Sequence record: PZ026127.1
DNA: 64,000 nt
DNA from: a phage
Reading direction: 5' to 3' (one strand)
Shown here: positions 15,256-34,624 of the stretch, in pieces
How the letters are laid out: each line of letters opens with the position of its first letter
Position numbering within the stretch: the stretch's first letter is position 1
Notes under the pieces: generated by a model
What the model was told of the DNA's origin: nothing
Databases searched by the model: none
The model's input: the letters and a program-made list of their open reading frames with translations, nothing else
Translations under genes and position numbers: made by a program

Positions 15256-16998
15256 TTAGCCAATGTCAATCCTCGAACCATCAATAGTATATTGACCAGA
15301 TGCAATAGAACTCATTGAAGCCATAGTCTCGGACCACGCACCTGCACAAGTCCAAGAAACGGTACCGTTTACTGTCCAATTTAAATTACCATTGGTCGTA
15401 CGAGTTTCATTACCTTCAACTAAGGTAGTTGCATCACCCTTAACAGTAACATCAGCATTTCCTTCAACAATAACAGTAACATTTCCTTTAACAAGCAGAG
15501 TTCCGTCACCTTCTACAGTTTTGGTTTCATTACCGCGAATATGGATGGTTTCGTTTCCATCAGTCTGACGACGCACGTTTGCCATATTATAATAGGTTTC
15601 ATCGCCACCAACGTTGACTTTATTATTACCACCAACATAAGTATTTGAATCGCCTTGGGTCATATAATAACCATCGGCTACCGTCTTAGAAGTTTTACGT
15701 CCATCAGGAGCAACTTCTTCATAACTACCGGTAGGATGGATTAAACGATATCGTTCTTGCCCTGGGGTGTTATCAAATTCTTGGATATGCCCACCTTCAG
15801 TTTGCATGGTTTGGACATATGGATATTCGCCTTTATAACTAGAATCAGGTTCTTTAAAAAGAATCCTTGTGTCTTCTGGAGTCCACGGGTCGGCAGGGTC
15901 CGAATTTGTAGGGGCCGCAAAGGTTTGAATCATTCTATACGAACGACCATTAAATGACCTTTCTTTAGGGGCCATAATACCATATGATTCCATGTTACCT
16001 GTGAGGATAATCATTGACACCCTTGATGCACGGCCTTTAGTTTGGTTAAACCATACTGAATTACGAGCTTCCTCAAATGCCTTTTTATAATCGCCTATTA
16101 GCATTGCACTAAGCATTCCACGGAATTTAGCCAAGCCGCCCAATCCCATTTGGAAAGCCATGTTTTCAAGAGCCATTTGTCTCGAACGGTTTTCTTTATT
16201 ATAAACAGGACCTACAACACTATGCCTGCCTATATCGTTTTGGACTTTTTTAAGGTCGTCTTGGAATAATTTAGAAACCTCGTCCATTGATATTGCACCA
16301 GGGTTACCTTTAACTTCTCGTCCTACCTGATTAGATAATATTTTGTTTATTTGATTCATATCTCTAATAGGTTGTGGTGTAATAAGGTGACCTATACCGA
16401 TAGTAGGGTATCCTTCGGTGTCCCAATATACCTTCAGTCGAAGCCCTTCATCACGGTGAAGCATGTTTTCTATTGTGAAATTAGGATTATCATCAGGCTT
16501 AACCTGGCTCAAATCTAAACCATCAGGATTAATACCTACATCGGTGTTTGCATCTTGTATTACGTTGGAAGTGGCATCATATCCAACTTCACCACCCCGG
16601 TTTAGTGCAGCGGCATCGTTACCTAAATAAAGTGGATATTGACCTGTCGGGTCACTAAAACCTTCATTAGGATTAGCCTTTTGTCTTGAAGCGGAACCGT
16701 ATGTACCAAGGACAAGTCCGTTTAATTTCCACTTATCAAGAAAGTGCCCGTAAACCTGTGTACCGGGGACCATACCAGTCATAGCGGTTTGGATACCTGA
16801 AACAGAGGCAGAAGATGTAGGCATTAATACCGACATCCATGGTAAATCTTCTGTACGAAGGCCTTTTACAGGGCCTTGTACTTTTTCATATGGATGCATA
16901 CCCCATACGCGCACGCGTACTCGGCCTTGTTGGAGTGGGTCCATTCGGTCTTCAACTACACCGACGAACCAACTTACATTATCAGACATGTTAATCAT
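15256..16998 (-). CDS. 5: baseplate central spike / tail lysozyme gp5
   Basis: 580 aa (T4 gp5 575); N-terminal OB-fold region, internal T4-lysozyme-like domain (...HRDEGLRLKVYWDTEGYPTIGIGHL...), Gly/Val-rich C-terminal beta-helix repeats. Confidence 0.9.
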   Translation of the reverse strand: MINMSDNVSWFVGVVEDRMDPLQQGRVRVRVWGMHPYEKVQGPVKGLRTEDLPWMSVLMPTSSASVSGIQTAMTGMVPGTQVYGHFLDKWKLNGLVLGTYGSASRQKANPNEGFSDPTGQYPLYLGNDAAALNRGGEVGYDATSNVIQDANTDVGINPDGLDLSQVKPDDNPNFTIENMLHRDEGLRLKVYWDTEGYPTIGIGHLITPQPIRDMNQINKILSNQVGREVKGNPGAISMDEVSKLFQDDLKKVQNDIGRHSVVGPVYNKENRSRQMALENMAFQMGLGGLAKFRGMLSAMLIGDYKKAFEEARNSVWFNQTKGRASRVSMIILTGNMESYGIMAPKERSFNGRSYRMIQTFAAPTNSDPADPWTPEDTRILFKEPDSSYKGEYPYVQTMQTEGGHIQEFDNTPGQERYRLIHPTGSYEEVAPDGRKTSKTVADGYYMTQGDSNTYVGGNNKVNVGGDETYYNMANVRRQTDGNETIHIRGNETKTVEGDGTLLVKGNVTVIVEGNADVTVKGDATTLVEGNETRTTNGNLNWTVNGTVSWTCAGAWSETMASMSSIASGQYTIDGSRIDIG

Positions 16999-17597
16999 AG
17001 CGCTTTTTCCATTTCTCTAATTAAAGCGGAAACAAAGGACTCGATGTCGTTAGGGTCTATAATCTTTATTTCGCGCTTATATTCATTTTTACGAATGGCG
17101 TCCTCGTAAATATCTACTGCAGCCAAAGGACCTTCATATTGAGGATAACGTTTTTCTGTATCACCTTTATCGTACCAAGTATAAGGATTTTCCGGAGTAT
17201 TTACTAGATTCCAGAATTTCTCACCCTTTTCATTGACATGATAAAGGACTTGGTTTCCGCCTGCAGTAGCATAACGTTGAATAGCTGCTTGATACGCAGA
17301 TTCTTGGCCTGTAATCCAGCCGTAATAAGGGTCATATACGTTATTACACATCAATAAAACCCAATATAATTGCACGTTACCATAAAGTTGATGGGCTAAT
17401 TCTTCTGGACGAGGGGCCCCACTGATATAATATGTTTTAAGTGTATAATTTTTAGCCACTTTATCAAAATATTCTTTATAGTTTCTAAATATATCAGTCA
17501 TCGGTACGCTCAGTACATCGGCATCAGTTAATGAGCCGGAATCTGGCTTGACTGTTTTTGATTCGTAATCGATAGGATCGAAAAATGAGAAGAGCAT
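16995..17597 (-). CDS. 53: baseplate wedge protein gp53
   Basis: 200 aa (T4 gp53 about 196); ATGA overlap with gp5; first gene of the minus-strand late block. Confidence 0.75.
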   Translation of the reverse strand: MLFSFFDPIDYESKTVKPDSGSLTDADVLSVPMTDIFRNYKEYFDKVAKNYTLKTYYISGAPRPEELAHQLYGNVQLYWVLLMCNNVYDPYYGWITGQESAYQAAIQRYATAGGNQVLYHVNEKGEKFWNLVNTPENPYTWYDKGDTEKRYPQYEGPLAAVDIYEDAIRKNEYKREIKIIDPNDIESFVSALIREMEKAL

Positions 17598-17642
17598 AGT
17601 GCCTCCGAGTATAAATAATATTAATATTTATAAGGAGGCACT
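17598..17642. promoter_or_regulatory. palindromic divergent late-promoter module (TATAAATA on both strands) between genes 53 and 4
   Basis: plus TATAAATA 17610-17617, minus TATAAATA 17625-17632, flanked by 9-bp inverted repeat AGTGCCTCC/GGAGGCACT giving identical GGAGGCACU-AUG leaders for both genes. Confidence 0.75.
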
Positions 17643-18092
17643 ATGGCCTACTCAGGGAAATTTAAACCTACAAACTTACAAAAATATAAAGGTGATTGGA
17701 AGAAAATCCAATATCGTTCCTCTTGGGAAGCATGGCTTATGCGTTGGCTTGACAACCATCCTAATGTCGTCCAGTGGAACTCGGAAGAGGTTGTGATTCC
17801 ATATTTTAGTAACGCTGATGGAAAGAAACGTCGGTATTTTATGGACTTCTGGGTTAAATTTGATACGGGCCAACAATTCTTTTTTGAAGTCAAACCTTTT
17901 AAAGAAACCCATGCTCCTGCGGTGCCTGTTAAAATGACTACGGCTGCTAAAAAGAGATATATCAACGAACACTATACTTGGTCTGTTAATACTGATAAGT
18001 GGAAAGCAGCTAAAGCTACAGCAGATAAAATGGGTATCACCTTTAGATTGATTACCGAACATTCACTGAAAAAATTAGGATGGAAAGGATGA
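17643..18092 (+). CDS. 4: head completion protein gp4
   Basis: 149 aa; MAYSGKFKP...YRSSWE...[10 protein letters not shown]... matches recalled T4 gp4 (150 aa). Confidence 0.9.
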
Positions 18093-18916
18093 GTATATTT
18101 TCCTACATCAATGAGGCTACTGAAACCACAAAGGGTTCCAAGCCTACTCGTTCAGAACAACAATGGATAACTTTAGGCGTTGAATATGCCAACGCTAAGG
18201 CTAAAGGTGTCTCGGCTAAGAAATTCGCTGAAGATAAAGGCATCAAGTATTCTAGCTTTACATCTGCGATGTCTCGATACTCGAGTCGAATTAAAACTGC
18301 TGTACAGGTTGAAAAACTTCAGAAGAAACCTGGCAATAAATTAACCAAAGCCGAACGTCAATTAATTTTGGTGAATAGTTTTAGAAAGAGTATTCGTGAT
18401 AAGATTGCTAACGAAGGCGCCGCTGTAAACAATAAATCAGCTAAATGGTTTACAGAAACATTAAAGAAAGGAATTCGTGGACACCAGGTATCTAAACCGT
18501 CTCCTGGCAAGCTTTATGCTTATATCTATGACGCCAAGCACAAGGATACTCTACCGTATTGGGACAAATATCCTTTAATCATTTATCTTGGGTTAGGTAA
18601 GCATAATTTAATGTATGGGCTGAACTTACACTATATCCCGCCTAAAGCACGCCAACAATTTCTGGAAGAATTGCTGAAGCAATACGCGAGTACGCCTACC
18701 ATTACTAACTCGACTAAATTAAAAATCGATTGGAGTAAGGTAAAAGGATTCGCTGGTGCAGACGTGATGATTAAGGCTTATATCCCTGGAAATATCAAGG
18801 GCCCTTTAGTAGAGATAAAACCGTCTGATTGGGCTAATGTCGTAATGATGCCGCTCCAACAGTTCATGTCTAAAGGCAAGCGTTATTCAGCTCAGAAAGT
18901 ATGGAAGAATTCATAA
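18080..18916 (+). CDS. 2: DNA end protector protein gp2
   Basis: 278 aa (T4 gp2 about 274); overlaps gp4 end; synteny 4-2-3-1. Confidence 0.8.
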
Positions 18917-18998
18917 TCTATTATCCCAGCCAGTTATTGAATGGAACAGACCTAGGACCATTATACACTGTCTGGGACTTAAGCAATATAGGAACCCT

Positions 18999-19589
18999 AT
19001 GAACGGTTTATTTAACCAAACTAACACTACTAACTTTATCTTAGAGGTTAGTGACGCAGGAATGACACAGGCATTCAAATTGAACGTACAAGATGTAACA
19101 CTACCGGGTATCCATATTCCGGTCTCAGACGTCCCAGGATCGACCCAGGGCATACATCGTGCTAAGCTGCCAGGTTCTACTGTAGAATTCGACCCATTGA
19201 TTGTGAACTTTCTTGTGGACCGTGAATTGAAATCGTGGCTTGACGTTTATAAGTGGATGTTGTCATTAAACAACTATGTAACCCATGATTCAGAAGCCTG
19301 GCATCCTAAAGGTCAACCGGAAGCTATCACCCTCCACATCCTTGATAACAACAAACAGAAAATCGTAATGAGCATTCATTACTACGGTGGTTGGCCATCC
19401 GACCTCTCGGAAATCCAGTACTCTTATAAAGAGGATTCTGACCCGGCGATAATCGCCACAGCAACATTCAACTTCAAATCGTTTGCTGTAGAAATAGATG
19501 GTACAATAGTTACAGGTCGTCCACAAATTGATTCGTATGCCGAACAACGAGTGGCTCGTATGTCTATGCATCCATCTATGAGAAAATAA
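18999..19589 (+). CDS. 3: tail completion/sheath stabiliser gp3
   Basis: 196 aa (T4 gp3 about 176); synteny between 2 and 1; assignment by position only. Confidence 0.65.
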   Translation: MNGLFNQTNTTNFILEVSDAGMTQAFKLNVQDVTLPGIHIPVSDVPGSTQGIHRAKLPGSTVEFDPLIVNFLVDRELKSWLDVYKWMLSLNNYVTHDSEAWHPKGQPEAITLHILDNNKQKIVMSIHYYGGWPSDLSEIQYSYKEDSDPAIIATATFNFKSFAVEIDGTIVTGRPQIDSYAEQRVARMSMHPSMRK

Positions 19590-20342
19590 TGAAACTAATA
19601 TCAATTGTAGGAATCAAACGTAGCGGTAAGGATACCGTTGCTAACTATGTAATCGAAAATATGGATTCGGTAAAATTTCAGCTCGCAGGTCCTATTAAAA
19701 AGTATCTGGCTGAAGCCTATGAATACATCTCTGATGACCCTGTATTCGACCGTAGTTACATGCCTAAACTAGATTTTAACTGTTTTGAAGGTATCGGTTA
19801 CGACCGTGAAGAAATCATTCCTTTAAAACCATATGATGTGATTGATATCTTTGAAAATGCTATTGTCAAACTGAATAATATCCTTCCTATTCCAGGAATG
19901 GATGTTCGTACCGCATATCATTATGGTCTTACCCCAGCCCAGTATCTGTCTGAAGAAACAAAAGACCAACTGTTTGAAGTAATAAATAAAAATAACAATT
20001 GGTCAGTACGTCGTCTCATGCAGACCCTTGGGACTGATATTATTGTTAACCAATTTGATAAGATGTATTGGGTTAAGTTGTTCGCTTTAGACTATTTTGA
20101 TAAAATATACTCTGATGCGAAATACTATGTCGTACCTGATGTTCGTCAAACACACGAAATTGATTCGCTCAGAGCGATGGGTGCTACGATTATTCATGTA
20201 GTTCGCGCTGAAACCGGTCAAGTACAAGACTCGCACATCACTGAAGCGGGTCTACCAATTTTACCTGGTGACGTTGTTGTTGAAAATAACGGCACTCTTT
20301 CTGAACTATACACCACTATTGATAAATTATTAGGAAATAAAA

Positions 20343-20350
<8 letters not shown>
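19589..20350 (+). CDS. 1: deoxynucleoside monophosphate kinase gp1
   Basis: 253 aa; P-loop GIKRSGKDT, ...KFQLAGPIK...WSVRRLMQTLGTD...MYWVKLFALDY... matches recalled T4 gp1. Confidence 0.9.
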
Positions 20351-21043
<693 letters not shown>

Positions 21044-21050
21044 GAACAAA

Positions 21051-21380
21051 ATGAAAACATATAACGAATTTGTACAAACTGAAGCAATTAATGAAGTAGC
21101 CATCCCTAAACCGGCTAAAGCTGGCGGTACTGAGTACTACCATATTGAAACATCTTTTGATGCAGCTTCAGATATGGCTAACGGGCTTGGTGATTTCATC
21201 CGTCAAGCTAAGTCCGACCTGGCTAAATTTACAAAGACCCTTGATAAAGAGCAAAAGAAACCTTTCTCGGATCTGGCTAAAAAACTGGACGCGTTAAATG
21301 ACAAGGTCTTTAAAGAAGTTTACCACGGTATGATTGGTCTTACCCGTGAATTCAATGCTGAAGTTAAAAAACTTCCCTAA
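21051..21380 (+). CDS. internal head protein with capsid-targeting sequence (IPI-locus)
   Basis: 109 aa; N-term MKTYNEFVQTEAINE has T4 internal-protein CTS pattern MKTYxEF + (L/I)xE cleavage motif; sits next to 57B like T4 ipI. Confidence 0.7.
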   Translation: MKTYNEFVQTEAINEVAIPKPAKAGGTEYYHIETSFDAASDMANGLGDFIRQAKSDLAKFTKTLDKEQKKPFSDLAKKLDALNDKVFKEVYHGMIGLTREFNAEVKKLP

Positions 21381-21388
21381 GTACAGAT

Positions 21389-21412
21389 AAGGAGCCACAA
21401 AGCTCCTTTTTG
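21389..21412 (+). terminator. intrinsic terminator
   Basis: AAGGAGC-CACAAA-GCUCCUU hairpin followed by UUUUUG after IP gene. Confidence 0.7.
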
Positions 21413-21428
21413 TATCTAAACAAAAGGT

Positions 21429-21460
21429 GTTTACTTTCCTGGATAGCCGTGATACTATAG
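21429..21460 (+). promoter_or_regulatory. T4-type early promoter cassette (GTTTAC -35, TACTAT -10)
   Basis: GTTTAC at 21429, 16-17 bp spacer, GATACTATAGCCCTATCAA core shared with 9 other cassettes. Confidence 0.65.
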
Positions 21461-21494
21461 CCCTATCAAAACAAATGAGTGATTGGAGAATAAA

Positions 21495-21680
21495 ATGAAA
21501 CGTTGTGAATTAATTAGAAATGTTACTGCACTGGCCGCTGTTACCGCTTTTGGCTTTAGTATGTTTGCAGGATTCATGCTCGATATGCTTTCAACTTCCG
21601 AGAATATAATCTCTTTAGTAGTGGCATTTTTAATTGGTTCAATTTCTTTTGTTATGGATAAAATCTCTAAAGGTGAGTAA
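21495..21680 (+). CDS. small hydrophobic protein
   Basis: 61 aa, ATG 21495 (ORF-track start is a TTG); predicted TM segments; downstream of promoter. Confidence 0.5.
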   Translation: MKRCELIRNVTALAAVTAFGFSMFAGFMLDMLSTSENIISLVVAFLIGSISFVMDKISKGE

Positions 21681-21681
21681 A

Positions 21682-22062
21682 ATGTATAAAGTGTATGCAG
21701 ATTATCAGGCAAATCCATCTGAAAAACCAGATTGTCAAATTGGGTGGGCACACGACACCCTGCTTGAGGCGGTAGATAAAGCCCAGGAATTAGGGTATAG
21801 TTATGTGGATATTGTTCAACCCAATGGGACCGTTATTACACTTGAAGAATTCAAGAATATCAAAACAAACTTTTTGCTCTTTGCGGGTGATAACTATTAC
21901 CCTCGTGGCGGTTATGCCGACTTAATCGCAAAGGCCGCTACTGAAGATGAACTGCGCGATATCATTAAAGAAAATGAGAATAACCCTCTTTACGGTTCCA
22001 ATCGTTTTGACTGGTGGCAGATTGTTAATGCTAATACCCATACTATTGTAGACGAGGGTTAA
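21682..22062 (+). CDS. hypothetical protein
   Basis: 126 aa from internal ATG after GGTGAG RBS (ORF-track start 21634 overlaps upstream gene). Confidence 0.55.
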   Translation: MYKVYADYQANPSEKPDCQIGWAHDTLLEAVDKAQELGYSYVDIVQPNGTVITLEEFKNIKTNFLLFAGDNYYPRGGYADLIAKAATEDELRDIIKENENNPLYGSNRFDWWQIVNANTHTIVDEG

Positions 22063-22353
22063 ATGCTATACGTTAAGGTTACTAATCCAGAGAATGGATA
22101 TAATTCAGACCAGGTTGCAGCAGAGCTACTGATTCGCAACTTTGGCAAAGGTGCTGTGCTTGATGTCCAACAGGTTAATATTGGTCGTAGTTCAAGCGAC
22201 GTTAAACTAAAAGTTAATGGTCGCCGTTATAATTCTGTTAACTTTACTTTCTACACCGCAACTGAAAACGGATTGATCGAATACGACATCTTTAAAAATC
22301 CTTTGAAGATTGCTTCTATTAAACTTGATTACATTAATATGTGGCCACAATGA
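22063..22353 (+). CDS. hypothetical protein
   Basis: 96 aa ORF, ATG directly after upstream stop (TAAATG). Confidence 0.55.
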   Translation: MLYVKVTNPENGYNSDQVAAELLIRNFGKGAVLDVQQVNIGRSSSDVKLKVNGRRYNSVNFTFYTATENGLIEYDIFKNPLKIASIKLDYINMWPQ

Positions 22354-22390
22354 ATCAAATTTGACCAGACTATTCCTAAAAATAGTAATA

Positions 22391-22415
22391 TGCTTTAAGA
22401 GTAATGTGTTATTAT
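22391..22415 (+). promoter_or_regulatory. candidate MotA-dependent middle promoter
   Basis: MotA-box-like TATGCTTTA at 22389-22397, 12 bp spacer, -10 TATTAT at 22410; overlaps 8-bp inverted repeat AGAGTAAT/ATTACTCT. Confidence 0.45.
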
Positions 22416-22532
22416 TACTCTAACATTATTAAGTAACCCTCTATTACCAAAGGTTCTTCCCTCAAAGAGCCTTTCATAATAGACAAGGTCTATTAATCAA
22501 ACTTACTTTACTTAATTTTATTTGAGGTGTTT

Positions 22533-22799
22533 ATGTTAGTATTAAAATTAGCTTTTTACGACCCAGAAACCAAGACAACAACTACCAAACGTTGTTCTAT
22601 TTCATATGAATGTCAATTTGGCGAAGTTGAGACTGATGGCGAGCCCTTTATGGCAATTGCCGATAGCACATTCGCTAAACCAAAAATAATTCCACTAGTT
22701 AACGCTGCGGCTTATCTGGTTGCTCCTGAAGAAATGACTTATCATACAATTCAGCACATGGCTAAAGATGATAATGCTCCTGCTGGATTTGTAGTTTGA
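22533..22799 (+). CDS. hypothetical protein
   Basis: 88 aa from ATG 22533 (ORF-track start is a GTG); GAGGTG RBS. Confidence 0.5.
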   Translation: MLVLKLAFYDPETKTTTTKRCSISYECQFGEVETDGEPFMAIADSTFAKPKIIPLVNAAAYLVAPEEMTYHTIQHMAKDDNAPAGFVV

Positions 22800-22804
22800 T
22801 TTAA

Positions 22805-22875
22805 GGCCCTGTAGCTGGACGGTCGAGCGAGCGACTCATAATCGCTGGATGGTGGTTCGATTCCACCCAGGGCCA
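22805..22875 (+). tRNA. tRNA-Met (anticodon CAU; could also be a lysidine-modified Ile reader)
   Basis: hand fold: 7-bp acceptor GGCCCTG/CAGGGCC, anticodon stem AGCGA/TCGCT with loop CTCATAA, T-arm GGTGG-TTCGATT-CCACC, discriminator A. Confidence 0.85.
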
Positions 22876-22916: not shown

Positions 22917-23582
22917 ATGTTCCATTACACTTATAAAATAACAAACAAAATTAATAATAAAATCTATATAGGTGCCCATTCAACCGAAAATTTGAATGAT
23001 GCATATTTTGGTTCCGGTAAACTCTTGAAAAGGGCCCAGGCCAAATACGGTATAGAAAATTTCTCTAAAGAAATATTAGAGTTCTTTGACGATAAAATCT
23101 CTATGTTTGAGTCAGAAAAGAATATTGTGACTGAAGAGTTTTTAAAGCGCCCCGATGTTTATAATTTGAAATTAGGCGGTGAAGGTGGTTGGGACCATTT
23201 AAACACCGAAGAATATTTAGATAAAAAGAAAGAAGCTTCCTTAAAAGGAGTTGCCGCTTTTAAAACCAGATTTGAGAACGACCCAGACCTTAAAGAAAAA
23301 TATCGTAAAATGGGTTCAGAAAGGTTTAAACAACTTTGGGATAATCCTAAGTATAGAGAGAAATTTTCAAATACTAAATCTTTCTTGGGTAAGACCCATT
23401 CAGATGAAACCAAAAATAAAATGAAAGAATCTCACGCCAGAAATAAACACCAACAAGGTGAAAATAATTCCGGATATGGAAAAATGTGGATTCATTCTTT
23501 AGAAGAAAAAGTTTCTAAACGTATTAACAAAACGGATATTATTCCTGAAGGTTGGAATAAAGGCCGTAAAATAAAATTTTGA
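22917..23582 (+). CDS. segB: GIY-YIG homing endonuclease (Seg-like) in tRNA cluster
   Basis: 221 aa; N-term YTYKITNKINNKIYIGAHS (GIY-x10-YIG variant), C-terminal NUMOD-like GKTHSDETKNKMKESH; lies between two tRNA genes like T4 segB. Confidence 0.75.
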   Translation: MFHYTYKITNKINNKIYIGAHSTENLNDAYFGSGKLLKRAQAKYGIENFSKEILEFFDDKISMFESEKNIVTEEFLKRPDVYNLKLGGEGGWDHLNTEEYLDKKKEASLKGVAAFKTRFENDPDLKEKYRKMGSERFKQLWDNPKYREKFSNTKSFLGKTHSDETKNKMKESHARNKHQQGENNSGYGKMWIHSLEEKVSKRINKTDIIPEGWNKGRKIKF

Positions 23583-23587
23583 ATTAC

Positions 23588-23662
23588 GTCCCGCTGGTGT
23601 AATGGATAGCATACGATCCTTCTAAGTTTGCGGTCCTGGTTCGATCCCAGGGCGGGATACCA
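23588..23662 (+). tRNA. tRNA-Arg (probable anticodon UCU), CCA encoded
   Basis: hand fold: acceptor GTCCCGC/GCGGGAT (one G-U), T-arm CCTGG-TTCGATC-CCAGG, anticodon loop CTTCTAA, 3' ACCA; anticodon stem has one mismatch. Confidence 0.7.
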
Positions 23663-24113: not shown

Positions 24114-24578
24114 ATGAAAACTTACAATGAATTTTTGACCGAACAATCTAGTTCAGATGTAAAAGCCGCCGCGATTGCAGCAATTCAAGCAGGTAAATAT
24201 TCTTACAAAGACGCCTCTGATGAAGAACGTTTCCGTTTTATTAAAGATTTTAAAGCCGAAGGTTTTACTAATGCTAATACTGTTAGCCGAGTTTTTAAAA
24301 GCCTAGCTGCATCAGGTGAATTGTTCCAGAAAGCCACAGGTAAAGCACCTGCGTCAAAAGCGGACCCTAAAGCCGCTCAAGAAAAAAATATCGCCAAAGG
24401 AATTATTTCTAAGTATGAAGCAATTCTTAAAGAGCTTTTAGTAATCAAAACAGAAGGCCAGAAACTGGCACGAGCACATAGCTTCAAAGATAATCCGCAT
24501 GCTCACGACTTAGAGTATGTTGAAGATATTCAGAAAATCATCAAAGACCGTATCTGGTCTGCTAAACAAATCAAATAA
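24114..24578 (+). CDS. internal head protein with capsid-targeting sequence
   Basis: 154 aa; N-term MKTYNEFLTE (CTS + LTE cleavage motif); strong RBS AGGAAATAACAATG. Confidence 0.7.
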   Translation: MKTYNEFLTEQSSSDVKAAAIAAIQAGKYSYKDASDEERFRFIKDFKAEGFTNANTVSRVFKSLAASGELFQKATGKAPASKADPKAAQEKNIAKGIISKYEAILKELLVIKTEGQKLARAHSFKDNPHAHDLEYVEDIQKIIKDRIWSAKQIK

Positions 24579-32869: not shown

Positions 32870-33466
32870 ATGAAAACGTATAAAGAATTTATCGCCGAAG
32901 CTTCTGTAGGAAAGGTCCAAGGCATTAATAAAGATGAGTGGACTTACAAAGGAAACGGCGTTGACAACCCAGGAAACGGTTTTGACGCTAAAACAGCTCC
33001 TATTGAACGGTATTTAGCTACAAAGGCTTCCGACTTTAAAGCTTTCGCCTGGGAAGGACTTCGCTGGCGTAACGACCTAAATATTGAAGCTGATGGACTT
33101 AAATTTGCCCATATCCAAGATGTTGTTGCTAGTAACTTGGACGCAGCTTTTGTTAAAGCTGACGGTGACCTTCGTCGCTGGAATTTAAAACTGTTCTCTA
33201 AACAGAAAGGTCCTGTATTTGTACCTAAAGCAGGTAAATGGACTATTGATAATAAATTGGCTAAGGCGGTCAACTTCGCCGGTCTTGAATTTGCCAAGCA
33301 TAAATCCGCATGGAAAGGTCTTGATGCAATGACTTTCCGTAAAGAATTTGCCGATGTTATGGTTAAAGGCGGCTTTAAGGCAGAGATAGATACCTCTAAA
33401 GGTACGTTTAAAGACGCTAATATTCAGTACGCTTACGCCGTTGCTAATGCAGCCCGTGGTAATTAA
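32870..33466 (+). CDS. ipIII: internal head protein IPIII-like with capsid-targeting sequence
   Basis: 198 aa (T4 IPIII about 194); N-term MKTYKEFIAEA with IAE cleavage motif; between e and denV. Confidence 0.7.
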   Translation: MKTYKEFIAEASVGKVQGINKDEWTYKGNGVDNPGNGFDAKTAPIERYLATKASDFKAFAWEGLRWRNDLNIEADGLKFAHIQDVVASNLDAAFVKADGDLRRWNLKLFSKQKGPVFVPKAGKWTIDNKLAKAVNFAGLEFAKHKSAWKGLDAMTFRKEFADVMVKGGFKAEIDTSKGTFKDANIQYAYAVANAARGN

Positions 33467-34366: not shown

Positions 34367-34624
34367 ATGAAAACTTATCAAGAATTTATTACAGAATCCA
34401 CTTTAGTTTCTAAACGTTGGAATATGATTGTAAACGTTAAACCTTCCGGCACTGAAGTTTCTATGGCCGACCCTAATGATGACGAACTTGAGCACGCTTT
34501 TAGCTCTAAAGAAACTGACGAGAAAGTGGTTAAGCAACTGGTTGCTGATGCAGACCAACTTCGTAAAGTAGCAGATGTTGTTAAGCTGTTTACTAAGAAA
34601 GGTTTTAAACACGAAGAACGTTAA
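34367..34624 (+). CDS. internal head protein with capsid-targeting sequence
   Basis: 85 aa; N-term MKTYQEFITES; RBS AAGGAATAATATG identical to the preceding gene. Confidence 0.65.
   Translation: MKTYQEFITESTLVSKRWNMIVNVKPSGTEVSMADPNDDELEHAFSSKETDEKVVKQLVADADQLRKVADVVKLFTKKGFKHEER

Follow-up and report, generated by a model that had tools for sequence, protein, structure and literature searches.

In the 64,000-nucleotide stretch of phage DNA analysed here (the window), the open reading frame (ORF) at 21051..21380 on the + strand probably encodes a T4-type internal protein that belongs to a small family distinct from IPI and that would be packaged, injected and used against host defence. A polymorphic ip locus, a common leader, and cassettes seen as diverse anti-defence proteins are already known and make up the standard view. 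What is new here is a defined family, small and uncharacterised, that differs from IPI, is strongly constrained and has been exchanged between genera; it has a predicted cleavage site and fold. Judged by its sequence, the window DNA comes from a JS98-like Dhakavirus, and its segment 20300-22400 is 98.9% identical to Escherichia phage vB_EcoM-E33 (E33) and 99.2% identical to PSD2002.

The coding sequence runs from an ATG to a TAA stop at 21378-21380 and specifies 109 aa, the full translation being MKTYNEFVQTEAINEVAIPKPAKAGGTEYYHIETSFDAASDMANGLGDFIRQAKSDLAKFTKTLDKEQKKPFSDLAKKLDALNDKVFKEVYHGMIGLTREFNAEVKKLP. Upstream of the ATG there are just four in-frame codons before a stop is reached. A Shine-Dalgarno-like AGGAA, read from the sequence at 21042..21046 (+), overlaps the stop codon of the preceding gene, 57B (20588..21043, +), which encodes a 151-aa, full-length member of the Acb1 anti-CBASS family (PF23474, 1.2e-58). 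The coordinates, the MKTYNEF start and the neighbouring 57B gene are all as the original prediction had them. Values of dN/dS were about 0.05 relative to the homologues of phages IME523 and CF1 (0.05-0.09 when the copies of the window, IME523 and CF1 are compared with one another). The gene is accordingly real and strongly constrained, and by this sequence measure strong purifying selection is acting on the family.

As the gap between 57B and the ORF measures 7 nt, the ORF has no promoter of its own in the window, and 57B is probably co-transcribed with it. In IME523 and CF1 the ATG of the homologue overlaps the 57B stop codon as ATGA, so that in these phages it is read together with 57B/Acb1. 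Coupling of the ORF to Acb1 probably takes place in transcription and possibly also in translation. From the 7-nt gap here and the ATGA overlap in the two relatives it follows that Acb1, a cyclic-nucleotide-degrading anti-defence gene, and the putative injected effector form one unit. Family copies from Providencia and Morganella phages are preceded by an early-type promoter of their own. When the window was scanned for exact copies of the T4 late promoter TATAAATA, none was found near the ORF, the closest on the + strand being at 17610. The sequence TATAAAGA at 20999, with one mismatch, was rejected as a late promoter: it is invariant in relatives but codes for E-Y-K-E, a conserved stretch of 57B, and its T4 counterpart is TACAAAGA, not TATAAA. 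Since no late promoter lies near the ORF, expression during prohead assembly through read-through, and hence the presence of the product while proheads assemble, is an assumption.

The N-terminus of the product reads MKTYNEFVQTEAINEVAIPKP..., and codons 1-15, MKTYNEFVQTEAINE (21051..21095, +), constitute a predicted capsid-targeting propeptide, as indicated by motif statistics and by alignment of leaders. A six-frame translation of the window was scanned with the leader pattern MK[TSA][YF].EF, yielding four matches against 0.007 expected under a first-order Markov model, in which the maximum in 300 runs was one. All four matches (21051, 24114, 32870 and 34367) are located at the start of an ORF. 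The leader of the 21051 ORF begins MKTYNEF and includes Y4 and F7, the equivalents of the two positions on which capsid targeting by the IPIII leader mainly depends, with processing of that leader depending on residues 8 and 10 (PMC9026906). It is the internal-protein leader that directs packaging (PMC9026906). Eleven leader-bearing proteins were compared, among them T4 IPI, IPII and IPIII and the ip-slot ORFs of JS98 and UGJNEcP3. Residues M1, K2, E6, F7 and E11 proved invariant and Y4 nearly so, and the leaders aligned while the bodies did not.

The gp21 prohead protease cuts after L/I-X-E, releasing propeptides that are 10-19 residues long in internal proteins (PMC9026906). A predicted site of this kind, I13-N14-E15 (21087..21095, +), would place cleavage after E15 and give a propeptide of 15 residues, which is inside the known range. 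This triplet is the sole (L/I/V)-x-E in the whole 109-aa protein. Moreover, alignment of the family places an (L/I)-x-E directly before a conserved body of the form x-x-(I/V/F)-P-K-P-x-K-A in all six members, which span identities down to 39%, even as the linker between the leader and this motif varies from 2 to about 16 residues. Such conserved placement is the strongest in-silico argument for cleavage at the predicted site. A capsid-targeting leader followed by a prohead-protease site had been claimed for this ORF from its letters, and both elements stood up to these comparisons. On this sequence evidence we consider it highly probable that the product is a packaged and processed internal protein.

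T4 IPI is an inhibitor of the GmrS/GmrD enzyme of E. coli CT596. Its gene lies between 57B and trna.4, and the gene order in the window (3, 1, 57A, 57B, ORF, trna.4, trna.3, trna.2) is identical to that of T4, with the ORF in place of ipI. The assignment to an IPI-equivalent locus is therefore sound in terms of gene order, and both proteins have a leader followed by an (L/I)-x-E site and are of similar size (95 aa for T4 IPI, 76 aa when mature, and 109 aa for the ORF product, 94 aa in its predicted mature form). Beyond these features the two differ. BLASTP of the ORF product against T4 IPI aligned residues 1-10 and nothing further, and the IPI_T4 profile (PF11634), which scores 7.3e-54 with T4 IPI, gave no match to the ORF product even at E<=10. 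Homology of the body to IPI was rejected on these grounds. T4 IPI is assigned to phrog_4363, whereas the ORF product is assigned to phrog_7857. Moreover, T4 ipI has its own early promoter, in contrast to the ORF, which abuts 57B. Processed IPI (IPI*) has a compact fold with two beta sheets flanked by helices (PMC3012670), unlike the two-helix hairpin predicted for the ORF product. The suspicion that the body would prove unrelated to IPI was thus borne out by the missing PF11634 match, the different PHROG and the all-helical predicted fold. In the kind of alignment that had been proposed as a check, here to T4 IPI and to the ip-slot ORFs of JS98 and UGJNEcP3, the leaders align and the bodies do not.

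The boundaries of the cassette were examined by comparison with related genomes. The flanks of the ORF, in a 2.1-kb query, matched 629 phage records, and coverage of at least 80% of the query was reached in just three. The ip slots of JS98 and of UGJNEcP3 each hold two other leader-bearing ORFs, assigned to other PHROGs. On the 5' side, homology with UGJNEcP3 ends at 21042, within the 57B stop codon, and homology with JS98 continues for 38 nt into the ORF, as far as 21088, and takes in its leader codons; by these comparisons 57B makes up the conserved 5' flank of the cassette. On the 3' side, homology with both phages resumes at 21422-21450. This 3' junction consists of an intrinsic-terminator stem-loop followed by a T run (21389..21408, +) and an early-type promoter, TTTACT-N17-TACTAT with an extended -10 TG (21430..21458, +), which serves trna.4 and marks the 3' boundary of the cassette. 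These are the two halves of a promoter-early stem-loop (PeSL), a type of shuffling element that was reportedly described in T4-like phages by Arbiol in 2010. The promoter half, at the site of cassette exchange, fits the T4/PST PeSL consensus TTTACW-N17-TAYWAT (Comeau et al. 2014, PMC4122927). The same PeSL element is duplicated upstream of ip cassettes in other Dhakaviruses, and T4 ipI is preceded by the same kind of promoter, whereas the ORF cassette has a PeSL on its 3' side only, its 5' junction being the 57B stop or the leader codons.

Compared with IME523, the cassette is 85% identical at the nucleotide level with a dS of 0.96, against 75% and a dS of 2.1 for the flanking 57B, and it is also less diverged than 57A or gene 1. 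This lower divergence of the cassette relative to its flanks points to its exchange between genera after they had diverged. On such sequence comparisons, the gene appears as one interchangeable cassette at the polymorphic ip locus, a locus whose cassettes share a common leader and which is said to have been described by Repoila et al. in 1994 (EMBO J). The ip4-ip13-class cassettes of T-even phages have the same character, being unrelated small ORFs with the leader alone in common and swapped between conserved flanks. The exchange itself would occur by recombination in the conserved flanks, that is, at the 57B end or leader codons on one side and at the PeSL terminator/promoter on the other.

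To delimit the family, the ORF product was searched by tblastn against 50,697 phage records and was found in nine, a count that includes IME523 and CF1 twice each (GenBank and RefSeq). The E33 protein is 100% identical to it and that of PSD2002 99.1%, followed by the homologues of IME523 (89%; an Enterobacter phage, Kanagawavirus) and CF1 (79%; a Citrobacter phage, Moonvirus), and by those of two Providencia phages and Morganella phage Rgz1 at 41-42%. The hosts thus comprise Escherichia, Enterobacter, Citrobacter, Providencia and Morganella. Only two Escherichia phage records among the 50,697 contain the gene, both Dhakavirus-like, and no family member was found by this search in classical T-even genomes. 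Sequence and family-profile searches of 5.8 billion proteins returned five clusters, all from T4-like phages and representing five lineages. When 1.84 billion representatives were searched exhaustively with HMMER, a single match was gained, to a 455-aa repeat protein, which we regard as spurious given that it matched through a repeated KIPFSDLAKAQD unit. In all five phages whose context was read (E33, IME523, CF1, PSTCR6 and Rgz1), the gene directly follows 57B, a placement that spans Dhakavirus, Kanagawavirus, Moonvirus, Gualtarvirus and a Providencia phage. The ORF product matches phrog_7857, "internal virion protein", at 2.5e-25, and RefSeq uses the same label for the CF1 and IME523 homologues. 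Public databases hold no Ip name for the family, as clusters P0001-P0004 are labelled "hypothetical protein" or "internal virion protein" and P0005 is nameless. When the supplements of Silas et al. (PMC12373910) were checked for the family among the tested ip genes, no sequence match came up, and a literature search yielded neither genetics nor virion proteomics on a member of the family, nor virion proteomics on a carrier phage.

The predicted mature protein (21096..21377, +) consists of residues 16-109, with 94 aa, a mass of 10.4 kDa, a pI of 8.8 and a net charge of +2, that is, mildly basic. AlphaFold2, run with the family alignment, modelled an all-helical hairpin formed by two long helices (residues 30-61 and 70-106). 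The pLDDT exceeds 90 for most of the body, and confidence is low over residues 1-29, falling below 50 for residues 6-8 and 11-26. Foldseek with this model found no match in the PDB at E<=0.001, and the sub-threshold matches were helical hairpins of a generic kind, for example ROP, Esx and the arms of seryl-tRNA synthetase. In the BFVD, the same model returned its own family alone. Pfam and NCBIfam searches of the protein gave nothing meaningful, and a sequence-profile match in the PDB to designed armadillo repeats was taken as an artefact of composition. A generic helical hairpin, as modelled, offers no functional clue.

The following scheme would account for these observations. The ORF would be transcribed jointly with 57B/Acb1, and the leader (MKTYNEF..., with Y4 and F7) would attach the protein to the scaffolding core while the prohead assembles. 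Cleavage by the gp21 protease after I13-N14-E15 would then leave a 94-residue, mildly basic helical hairpin, which would remain inside the head together with the DNA. In the following round of infection this hairpin would be ejected into the cell alongside the DNA, and there it would neutralise a host defence that acts before phage gene expression. The head genes lie outside the window, and the machinery was looked up in E33, which encodes a gp21 of the Peptidase_S77 type (PF03420, 6.3e-103) and also gp22, gp67/68 and an inhibitor of the prohead protease. E33 also encodes a gp42-like hydroxymethylase, gene 56 and denB, from which modified cytosine DNA, a substrate of type IV restriction enzymes, is indicated in this phage.

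The internal proteins are a diverse set of defence proteins that have the leader alone in common (PMC3012670), and analogy with them makes an anti-defence effector the reasonably probable identity of the ORF product. [quoted passage not shown] Ip1, Ip2 and Ip3 each inhibit a distinct GmrSD, without cross-protection (Silas et al. 2025, PMC12373910). In that work, tests of seven further ip genes (ip4-10) on GmrSD variants yielded no inhibition that could be reproduced (PMC12373910), so the analogy that every Ip blocks a GmrSD is unproven.

A packaged and injected protein could instead be directed at something other than type IV enzymes, such as BREX, type I or III restriction-modification, RecBCD-type nucleases or an abortive-infection sensor. 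We rate this as unlikely, yet it is the alternative that survives best, for the evidence on the class of protein is identical to that for the GmrSD reading, and the negative result with ip4-10 counts in its favour. Moreover, a family carried by phages of five host genera should have a widespread target, and Acb1, to which the gene is coupled, inhibits immunity of another kind. On the other side, every internal protein whose target is known, three in all, inhibits a GmrSD-type enzyme, and the modified-cytosine genes of E33 are of the sort that makes such phages vulnerable to type IV enzymes. One form of this alternative, to which we likewise give a low probability, takes the mature hairpin as an injected inhibitor of an early-acting immune system that lies outside the GmrSD targets of Ip1-3 and is common to the five host genera, with the gene being delivered as a unit with Acb1. 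If this were true, the strategy of head-packaged effectors would extend past anti-restriction.

We also considered whether the ORF product could be a diverged homologue of IPII (Ip2) that moved to the ipI slot and acts, as Ip2 does, on GmrSD/BrxU, the BREX-associated enzyme of ECOR21, or on a close variant of it. T4 Ip2 is the PF26874 protein and an inhibitor of GmrSD-ECOR21, and its gene lies beside ipIII and denV in T4, in contrast to the ipI slot occupied by the ORF. The two proteins share the leader, an all-helical prediction and a K-P-(F/L)-x4-K-K-(L/I)-D motif at a helix start, and both match phrog_7857 over their full length (6.2e-54 for T4 IPII and 2.5e-25 for the ORF product). A Providencia homologue matches this profile outside the leader as well (residues 25-100, 2.3e-7). 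The strong match may nevertheless be self-recognition, as the phrog_7857 profile probably contains CF1-type members, and an HMM built from IPII only gave the ORF product 10.2 bits, against 10-20 bits for unrelated leader-bearing proteins. Comparison of the two family alignments by hhalign gave an E of 1.8e-6 and a probability of 90% over 29 columns around the K-P-(F/L)-x4-K-K-(L/I)-D motif. With the leaders removed, the score of 22.5 still exceeded all 200 column shuffles (maximum 18.4), but the hhalign probability dropped to just 14%. Furthermore, AlphaFold2 modelled IPII with four short helices (4-25, 34-51, 59-79 and 83-98) as against the two long ones of the ORF product, and neither model retrieved the other family in the BFVD. 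Taking both sides together, descent from IPII with retention of its target is doubtful.

A role in the head that is purely physical and has no specific host target (neutralising charge, condensing or ejecting DNA, or helping the scaffold) would fit the mildly basic mature part with its pI of 8.8. It would also fit the roughly 300-370 copies of internal proteins per head and the slower head assembly of IPIII mutants (PMC9026906). Such a role predicts conservation, though, and the gene occurs in nine of 50,697 records, with close relatives carrying unrelated cassettes. The net charge of +2 is, in addition, far below what would be expected of a DNA-condensing protein, and we regard this role as improbable. 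It is very improbable that the protein is not packaged and acts after its expression in the infected cell, its leader-like start being a leftover of recombination, for although the 38 nt of homology to JS98 imply that leader codons do serve as a recombination substrate and no dedicated late promoter is present, the leader and a correctly placed (L/I)-x-E are kept in six of six members down to 39% identity, under purifying selection and despite a variable linker.

An injected anti-defence protein, the reading that we prefer, matters in that internal proteins are delivered ahead of any phage gene expression and are the phage's first answer to host immunity. The GmrSD type IV family is very diverse, and the three known targets of internal proteins are different subtypes (PMC12373910), while most other ip cassettes have no known target. 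The family described here is thus a clean candidate for a new pair of GmrSD subtype and inhibitor or for a target class that is new. The family is relevant, too, to predicting the host range of therapeutic T4-like phages, PSD2002, a carrier of the gene, being used in an anti-O157 cocktail. As a genomic observation, the family confirms the established picture and does not change it; its main value is as a candidate for anti-defence screening.

The three remaining matches to the leader pattern are at the start of other ORFs of the window. The ORF at 24114-24578, just past tRNA genes, encodes 154 aa beginning MKTYNEFLTEQ..., belongs to phrog_2280, has no Pfam match and probably represents a further packaged protein whose gene lies outside the classical ip slot. 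An IPIII orthologue of 198 aa, 87% identical to T4 IPIII, is encoded at 32870-33466, and an 85-aa leader-bearing ORF follows about 0.9 kb downstream (34367-34624). As the latter resembles T4 IPII over its first 25 residues only, the ipII position appears to hold a replaced cassette too.

Between tRNA-Met (22805-22875) and tRNA-Arg (23588-23662), an ORF at 22917-23582 encodes a 221-aa seg-like homing endonuclease of the GIY-YIG/NUMOD3 type. The segment 22817-23581 is absent from E33, UGJNEcP3 and JS98, with 64 bp at that place in E33, so the phage of the window is not identical to E33. In Providencia phage PSTCR6 (1940-2450 of its stretch), the family member and the next gene each follow a near-identical promoter in an inverted repeat, TTTAC(G/A)-N17-TATGAT; the product of the latter begins with MNFKEFF, perhaps a shortened variant of the leader. 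Three tandem Alt-like ADP-ribosyltransferase genes are present in E33 (16533-22645 of its stretch), compared with one alt gene in T4. Alt is likewise packaged in the head, processed by gp21 and injected. Finally, between the genes for the gp42-like hydroxymethylase and uvsX, where T4 has its beta-glucosyltransferase, E33 contains a 297-aa ORF with no Pfam match (1545-2435 of its stretch), which may encode an enzyme that decorates hydroxymethylcytosine in Dhakaviruses.
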